Shown piece after piece: positions 21,515 through 21,666 of a DNA stretch of 26,209 nucleotides. The stretch spans positions 1-26,209 of the forward strand of contig JBFIOX010000001.1 of NCBI GenBank assembly GCA_041610455.1. The letters run 5' to 3'. The stretch's first letter is position 1; every line of letters begins with the position of its first letter. This DNA comes from Gemmatimonadota bacterium (GTDB lineage: Bacteria; Gemmatimonadota; Gemmatimonadetes; Palauibacterales; Palauibacteraceae). The translations under genes were made by a program, and so were the position numbers. Under the pieces are notes generated by a model, which was not told where the DNA came from, ran no database searches, and saw only the letters and a program-made list of their open reading frames with translations.

Positions 21515-21661
21515 GGAGCCGCGACGTTCTCGATCTCAGAGGCCGCATGGCCGCCACCCCCTAGCGGGGTCGCCGGCGTGCGGTTTCGCGCATCGAGGAG
21601 CGAAACCACGATCCGAGAAGCGGGCCGCGGCGTCGCGTCGCGCGCACGTCCCCCCCGGCGA
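21515..21661 (+). ncRNA. Candidate structured cis-regulatory RNA in the guaB leader (unassigned class)
   Basis: Manual pairing: TTCTCG/CGAGAA, GCCGCG/CGCGGC, GGTTTCGC/GCGAAACC and ACCCC/GGGGT, an alternative 22-position hairpin, and an anti-SD complement. Confidence 0.45.
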
Positions 21662-21666
21662 GCCAC

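Follow-up and report, generated by a model that had tools for sequence, protein, structure and literature searches.

Here we analyse the region preceding guaB, the gene for IMP dehydrogenase (IMPDH), in a 26,209-nt stretch of DNA from a Gemmatimonadota bacterium (hereafter the window). The sequence between the guaB promoter and the guaB start codon is probably a translated mRNA start and not a free riboswitch, and the hairpin conserved within it is real beyond chance. The explanation we lean towards is a leaderless upstream open reading frame (uORF) that acts as an attenuator of the pyrBI type and is translationally coupled to guaB. The gene stands at the committed step to GTP. Apart from a few model organisms, little has been learned of how its level is set in bacteria, and almost nothing of gene regulation in Gemmatimonadota. 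The regions upstream of guaB were compared in about 125 Gemmatimonadota genomes, comprising the window's genus and sister family, an even sample of the phylum and two metagenome contigs; these relatives are not mutually independent. The promoter, the reading frames and the gene are arranged as follows:

21478-21506, forward strand: sigma-70-type promoter, with a -35 box TTGACG (21478-83), a 17-nt spacer and a -10 box TACCAT (21501-06).
21512-21514, forward strand: ATG 5 nt past the -10 box, the candidate transcription start site and leaderless start codon.
21512-21670, forward strand: uORF of 52 codons plus TGA, an open frame from the 5' ATG that spans the whole 'leader'.
21667-21670, forward strand: ATGA in the sequence, in which the uORF stop TGA overlaps the guaB start ATG.
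21667-23121, forward strand: guaB, encoding an IMP dehydrogenase of 484 aa (Pfam IMPDH, 1.7e-159, plus CBS domains).

The promoter that the initial annotation had pointed out, TTGACG-17-TACCAT, is present at 21478-21506 and is the single sigma-70-like site of the region (1 found versus 0.1 expected). Among 54 aligned relatives, the positions of the -35 TTGAC and the -10 TAnnnT are near-invariant. The window has the geometry of a leaderless gene (TTGACG-17-TACCAT-5 nt-ATG), and the distance from the -10 box to the ATG is 5 nt in every locus of f1, the window's own family, and of f2 (n = 41; 4-6 nt permitted). An ATG placed 5 nt past the -10 box of the guaB promoter was found at 107 loci from at least eight GTDB families of one Gemmatimonadota class, the phylum sample having been picked with a regular expression that demands the ATG; the promoter-ATG geometry is absent from all eight loci of other Gemmatimonadota classes. 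From this arrangement we infer that transcription begins at or beside A21512 and yields a leaderless mRNA opening with a 5' AUG.

The 5-nt spacing was also considered as an unusual feature in itself, a notion we rejected because spacings of 5-7 nt occur at other leaderless-type genes here. In the window's genome, 11 other promoter-like sites (a -35-like box plus TAnnnT) are followed at a spacing of 5-7 nt by an ATG or GTG with 120 or more open codons behind it, with about one such site per other spacing, which suggests that leaderless mRNAs may be in regular use in this organism. These include a leaderless-type promoter of the form TTGACC-17-TAACGT-5 nt-ATG at a contig end (G000, C68:10311-10383).

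The 5' ATG is joined to guaB in three different ways. At 60 loci, including the window, it opens a uORF. Family f4 has 15 long leaders, and in 14 of them the ATG is instead in frame with guaB through the hairpin, without a stop; its distance to the conserved TFDD motif (111-177 nt) is always a multiple of 3. At a further 33 loci the whole element is missing and the ATG is joined directly to guaB. Of these, 31 could be checked, and in 24 no other in-frame start precedes the conserved IMPDH N terminus LTFDDV, so the guaB mRNA there must be leaderless. One guaB-specific element is thus kept across a class in three forms (uORF, in-frame fusion and clean deletion), which together make up a mutagenesis series supplied by nature.

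In most species of the window's genus the leader is gone, cleanly deleted so that guaB continues in frame from the 5' ATG (MEAPTPRSSREALTFDD; loci L002-L010, L013-L016, L018, L019 and L021). Comparable losses are seen in families f3, f4, f6, f7 and f8. In the f4 loci L178-L194 (for example, L181:81-175:-), the hairpin region belongs to the translated IMPDH frame and gives the enzyme an N-terminal extension of about 30-35 residues with the pattern MATTTR...RPA.P...G[PL]SR.... The two hairpin arms encode its RPA and GPSR/GLSR motifs, so that constraints on RNA structure and on coding overlap. The gene 5' of guaB in the window (20661-21464) encodes 267 aa with only a sub-threshold match to DUF2281 and a conserved C-terminal part; its position beside guaB is kept throughout the genus, among f1 relatives and by a Longimicrobiales metagenome-assembled genome (L045). 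Most of the window sequence is present in four DNA runs of one marine study, and a fifth run contains 12% of its words. A pattern scan of metagenomes for nearer relatives of the 155-nt leader returned only the L017/L143 group and two chance matches.

The uORF of the window is shared by the other long leaders of its family. In all 11 long f1 leaders (109-170 nt; nine of them from the window's genus), frame 0 is open to the guaB start, compared with 6.4 expected from shuffles. Taking the 69 long leaders together, 60 have no stop in frame 0 until at most 25 nt before guaB (shuffles, 46.9; control frames, 48 and 43), the other nine having an early in-frame stop. This statistic is only moderate because open frames are common by chance at about 70% GC and because the relatives are non-independent. 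Of the uORFs at the 60 uORF-type loci, 22 end in ATGA, 10 in TGATG and 4 in other overlaps, such that the uORF stop overlaps the guaB start in 36 of 60, and a further 7 leave a gap of at most 10 nt (43 of 60 in total); six stop far upstream of guaB. The window itself has the stop/start overlap by which termination-re-initiation coupling is recognized, and its guaB AUG has no good Shine-Dalgarno sequence.

Neither conservation of the uORF peptide nor a codon run was found in the 69 long leaders, and close pairs differ within the uORF by 6 synonymous and 7 non-synonymous changes, which suggests no clear selection on the peptide. As the peptides are unconserved, translation itself appears to matter, not its product. 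Polyproline stalling was considered and rejected: the window uORF has a PPPP, but PPP occurs in just 2 of the 69 leaders. Seven f3 leaders of only 6-20 codons, shorter than the leaders in which hairpins were sought, keep a uORF and its overlap with the guaB start, and coupling thus seems to be independent of the hairpin. A GGAG precedes guaB in several f3 leaders, and guaB translation therefore has more than coupling to rely on. No start codon follows the AGGAG (21597-21601) that lies directly past the hairpin tail in the window, 65 nt before guaB, whereas the corresponding GGAG of relatives stands 4-14 nt before the guaB start. This difference suggests that about 60 nt may have been inserted between tail and guaB in the window's lineage. 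The stretch from tail to guaB ranges from about 37 to 95 nt and is wholly different among relatives in both length and sequence.

Within the uORF, the conserved RNA element and the segments adjoining it are:

21539-21587, forward strand: conserved hairpin ('fold B'), with a lower stem 21539-49/21577-87 and an apical helix ACCCC/GGGGU (21556-60/21566-70).
21584-21593, forward strand: T-rich tail TTTCGCGCAT, terminator- or pause-like, three T of which overlap the G-U end of the stem.
21529-21597, forward strand: window-specific extension of the hairpin, CTCGAT (21529-34) with ATCGAG (21592-97), pairing probability (P) 0.73-0.94.
21598-21666, forward strand: non-conserved 3' part of the uORF, containing the 3' strands of the outer-stem, P3 and anti-Shine-Dalgarno pairings discussed below.

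The uORF (21512-21670) thus passes through the hairpin (21539-21587). In the computed ensemble, the first nine pairs of the lower stem have P of about 0.99 and the innermost two 0.92 and 0.57; the CTCGAT/ATCGAG extension lies outside the conserved model and competes with a TTCTCG/CGAGAA pairing. Compared with shuffles, the first 100 nt of the transcript fold with a z-score of -2.0 in the window and a mean z-score of -1.71 in 68 relatives, and the 3' part of the uORF (21598-21666) contributes nothing to folding significance. A GC-rich hairpin of 23-54 nt is present in single-sequence minimum free energy (MFE) folds of nearly all long leaders; the guaB leader of a Gemmatimonadaceae metagenome-assembled genome (locus L043) is among those that carry the hairpin. 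It starts 20-48 nt after the AUG (median 27) and never within 20 nt of it, which leaves the initiation site free.

A first covariance model (R1), built from f2 only, was too weak for whole-genome search (3 of 151 genomes) and was replaced by a model built across families (R2). R2 matches the window at 21477-21600 with 22.1 bits (E = 4e-4), f2 and f3 leaders scoring 60-74 bits. In the alignment of about 54 relatives (A4), which was fitted to the model's structure and therefore favours it, 95.6% of hairpin cells are paired, whereas shuffling the columns gives 64.6% and sliding the partners no more than 48%; 174 cells carry double changes versus 54 expected. In a plain MAFFT alignment of the f4 leaders the 5' arm was misaligned and RNAalifold for that reason did not recover the hairpin, and the support that does not pass through a fitted alignment is that of the single-sequence folds only. 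The 54 aligned leaders contain no conserved loop, junction or internal loop in the hairpin, and its apical region is variable.

The flanks of the stem are biased in composition. In relatives, the 8 nt past the stem contain on average 3.43 T (1.58 expected from composition) and the 8 nt before it 2.26 A (1.31 expected), and T-richness after a stem with A-richness before it is typical of intrinsic terminators. A tail variant, TTYGYGYAT, recurs in f1, f3, f4, f5 and f8, in different reading frames. A simple terminator scan did not call the window hairpin, which has a weak T-tract with only three T after the stem, and the window shows no enrichment of canonical terminators. Pairing of the tail with the 5' AUG region, followed by eye in several families, is inconsistent, and MFE folds of the leaders contain no conserved competing or antiterminator helix.

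The hairpin element occurs once per genome, at guaB only. Genome-wide, the tail motif GGGYYKTYGYGYAT is at or below the control level. Searches of five genomes with R2 found guaB alone in four; in G000, where 150 of 5,565 first-look candidates were scored, the guaB leader was missed and two noise-level matches were returned. A wider regulon was rejected on the basis of the tail-motif counts and these genome searches. Upstream of guaB, R2 has no match in 78 loci of other phyla or in 8 loci of other Gemmatimonadota classes, and its matches elsewhere are at noise level (E of about 0.8-1.0): one lies in a Ruminococcus locus, the other in one of a further pair of Gemmatimonadota loci.

Under the attenuator towards which we lean, a ribosome would initiate at the 5' AUG and translate the 52-codon uORF through the hairpin and its tail (21539-21593). 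Travelling close behind RNA polymerase, this ribosome would keep the hairpin from folding and allow read-through into guaB, and on terminating at the ATGA it would re-initiate on the guaB AUG. Transcripts that are not translated would fold the hairpin, leading to termination or a pause. In this way, translation initiated at the 5' AUG would control guaB output. For this leader we infer both termination at the hairpin and its relief by the ribosome. The signal could be the level of purine NTPs, acting through start-site choice or pausing, or else general translational capacity; one candidate would be a GTP-sensitive pause at the tail's Y-G steps (TTTCGCGCAT). Intrinsic terminators in or just after open reading frames are reported to be repressed by translation (PMC4824070), which is consistent with a ribosome blocking the guaB hairpin.

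The initial annotation had read the same stretch as a candidate riboswitch of a new class, in which a purine nucleotide would stabilize one of two mutually exclusive folds (a multi-way junction, fold A, or the long hairpin, fold B) and so expose or hide the guaB ribosome-binding site. Such a reading of the guaB leader is unlikely, and we regard a new metabolite riboswitch of this kind as very improbable. The complementary segments quoted for it all exist in the sequence, and fold A can be drawn without non-canonical pairs. The 166-nt leader as a whole, however, folds no better than chance (-78.4 kcal/mol versus -74.6 +/- 4.2 for dinucleotide shuffles; z-score -0.89, with 41 of 200 shuffles as good), and the two folds, described as mutually exclusive, are unbalanced: fold A reaches -50.5 kcal/mol, the best structure with the outer stems -74.9 and the MFE structure -77.5, leaving fold A about 24-27 kcal/mol less stable than the best folds. 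Its helices are nearly unpopulated in the ensemble (GGUUUCGC/GCGAAACC, or P3, P at most 0.01; GGCC/GGCC, P = 0.00), as is the second segment of the proposed outer stem (TTCTCG/CGAGAA, P at most 0.06). The anti-Shine-Dalgarno pairing on which a translational switch was built has P = 0.00 in the ensemble and an unconserved 3' strand, and the 3' strands used by fold A are likewise unconserved. Stems other than fold B come free at about 70% GC. What stands of the proposal is fold B, with P of about 0.99 at its base and covariation in relatives. The 3' half of the leader, which fold A and the anti-Shine-Dalgarno pairing need, is absent or unalignable in the nearest relatives. A conserved, guaB-specific cis-acting RNA structure before guaB is supported; a ligand-switched choice of folds and an anti-Shine-Dalgarno translational switch are not.

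The surmise that the leader belongs to no known aptamer class was borne out, no Rfam family matching it: an Rfam cmscan gave nothing at the gathering score in the window, only flpD at E of at most 10 in the leader, and nothing at E of at most 1 in 19 relatives. The flpD match, which lies over the guaB start (21663-21715; 18.8 bits where the gathering score is 40; E = 0.11), is most likely due to chance. The guaB context would suit a riboswitch, the conserved hairpin is absent from Rfam and conserved sequence follows it; very small aptamers do exist, preQ1-I being one. Against this, total hairpin length ranges between 23 and 54 nt, and neither a loop nor a junction is conserved. One hairpin is conserved where an aptamer core would comprise several helices or a pseudoknot with conserved unpaired nucleotides, and no expression platform of two competing conserved folds was found. 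A conserved frame from the 5' AUG covers the region, so that a free-folding aptamer is not expected there; the element is translated in frame, in f4 even as IMPDH, and in 33 genomes it is deleted entirely, with guaB directly at the 5' AUG.

A tentative alternative, which we consider plausible but less probable, keeps the uORF solely as a means of delivering ribosomes to guaB and makes the hairpin a post-transcriptional element in place of a terminator: an mRNA stabilizer, an element that slows ribosome flow or a place where a regulatory protein binds. One candidate for such a protein is IMPDH, its CBS domains having been reported to bind nucleic acids. The weak, interrupted T-tract (TTTCGCGCAT) that the terminator scan did not call would fit this alternative, as would the position of the f4 hairpin inside the guaB frame itself, the uORF overlap kept by the seven short f3 leaders and the conservation of YGYGYAT after the hairpin, which goes beyond a plain T-run. 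The T after and A before the stem are nevertheless those of an intrinsic terminator, a hairpin 20-48 nt from the 5' end within a translated frame has the geometry of a ribosome-sensitive attenuator, and the binding protein would be hypothetical. It is less probable still that the element of this genome is a decaying relic, with an inherited hairpin that regulates nothing and a guaB translated through uORF coupling. The window scores 22.1 bits where f2 and f3 reach 60-74, three T follow its stem, and its AGGAG is 65 nt from guaB where relatives have GGAG at 4-14 nt, with a stretch of about 60 nt extra, all of which decay would explain. Yet the hairpin is intact and very stable, the uORF runs uninterrupted for 52 codons to an end that falls exactly in ATGA, and the same design is found in all 11 long f1 leaders.

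A further reading, unlikely in our estimate, places the sensor at the promoter, where RNA polymerase would respond to the balance of ATP and GTP as in a bacterial counterpart of yeast IMD2. Transcripts started at A21512 would carry the 5' AUG and be translatable by 70S ribosomes, so that the hairpin terminator would be suppressed and ribosomes carried into guaB. When GTP is plentiful, transcription would start 2-3 bases later, at the G of +3 or +4, giving a transcript without a start codon that would be terminated at the hairpin; in genomes lacking the hairpin, the G-started transcript would simply be silent. What hints at this reading is the G at +4 (21515; A4 column 40), kept in 51 of 54 leaders although the second residue varies (G, E, A or V), which points to a constraint at the nucleotide level. 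It is present in hairpin-less leaders too, but in only 2 of the 11 other leaderless-type genes of the genome. At IMD2, start choice depends on GTP, G-initiated transcripts ending early and A-initiated ones being productive (PMC3325174). The enzyme is the same, and the window has an A at the putative start, G at +3/+4 and then a terminator-like hairpin; the yeast system differs in its scanning by eukaryotic Pol II and its non-hairpin terminator, and the resemblance would be functional at most.

In our literature searches, no published guaB leader of this kind was found. The two components of the favoured attenuator are known already, leaderless regulatory uORFs from mycobacteria and ribosome-blocked terminators from pyrBI. 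The mycobacterial examples are leaderless polycysteine uORF attenuators (Canestrari et al. 2020; bioRxiv 10.1101/834739; PMC8764745), and they would share with guaB a leaderless mRNA whose first open reading frame is short and regulatory for the downstream operon. Cys codons make those uORFs responsive to cysteine, and it is translation of the following gene that they control; the guaB uORF, by contrast, has no conserved regulatory codons and contains a hairpin and T-rich tail. The trpL, hisL and Mycobacterium tuberculosis ilvB1 (PMC13236596) leaders likewise place a short translated frame before a terminator and let ribosome position decide read-through, but the guaB leader has no antiterminator hairpin in MFE folds, no run of cognate codons and no amino-acid pathway behind it. 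Purine and ykkC-type (ppGpp/PRPP) riboswitches resemble it in lying upstream of purine-metabolism genes, whereas the purine-pathway riboswitches of Rfam have no match in the window or 19 relatives and the guaB leader lacks a multi-helix aptamer core. For riboswitch searches in GC-rich genomes, the case implies that self-complementary 'leaders' may be translated and that most of their stems arise by chance.

The closest parallel is Escherichia coli pyrBI and pyrE, where leader translation and transcription are coupled in a UTP-sensitive manner (Turnbough and Switzer review). As at pyrBI, a leader frame runs through a hairpin, at guaB a terminator-like one, before a nucleotide-biosynthesis gene, and the ribosome would block that hairpin without any antiterminator. 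The guaB leader frame differs in beginning at the very 5' end, without a Shine-Dalgarno sequence, and in having a stop that overlaps the structural gene's start. It differs also in its weak T-tract, in serving a purine and not a pyrimidine gene, and in that its NTP-sensitive pause tract is hypothetical. If the attenuator reading is correct, guaB would provide the first pyrBI-type attenuation in the purine pathway, as far as we have found, and one in which leaderless initiation itself is the regulated step.
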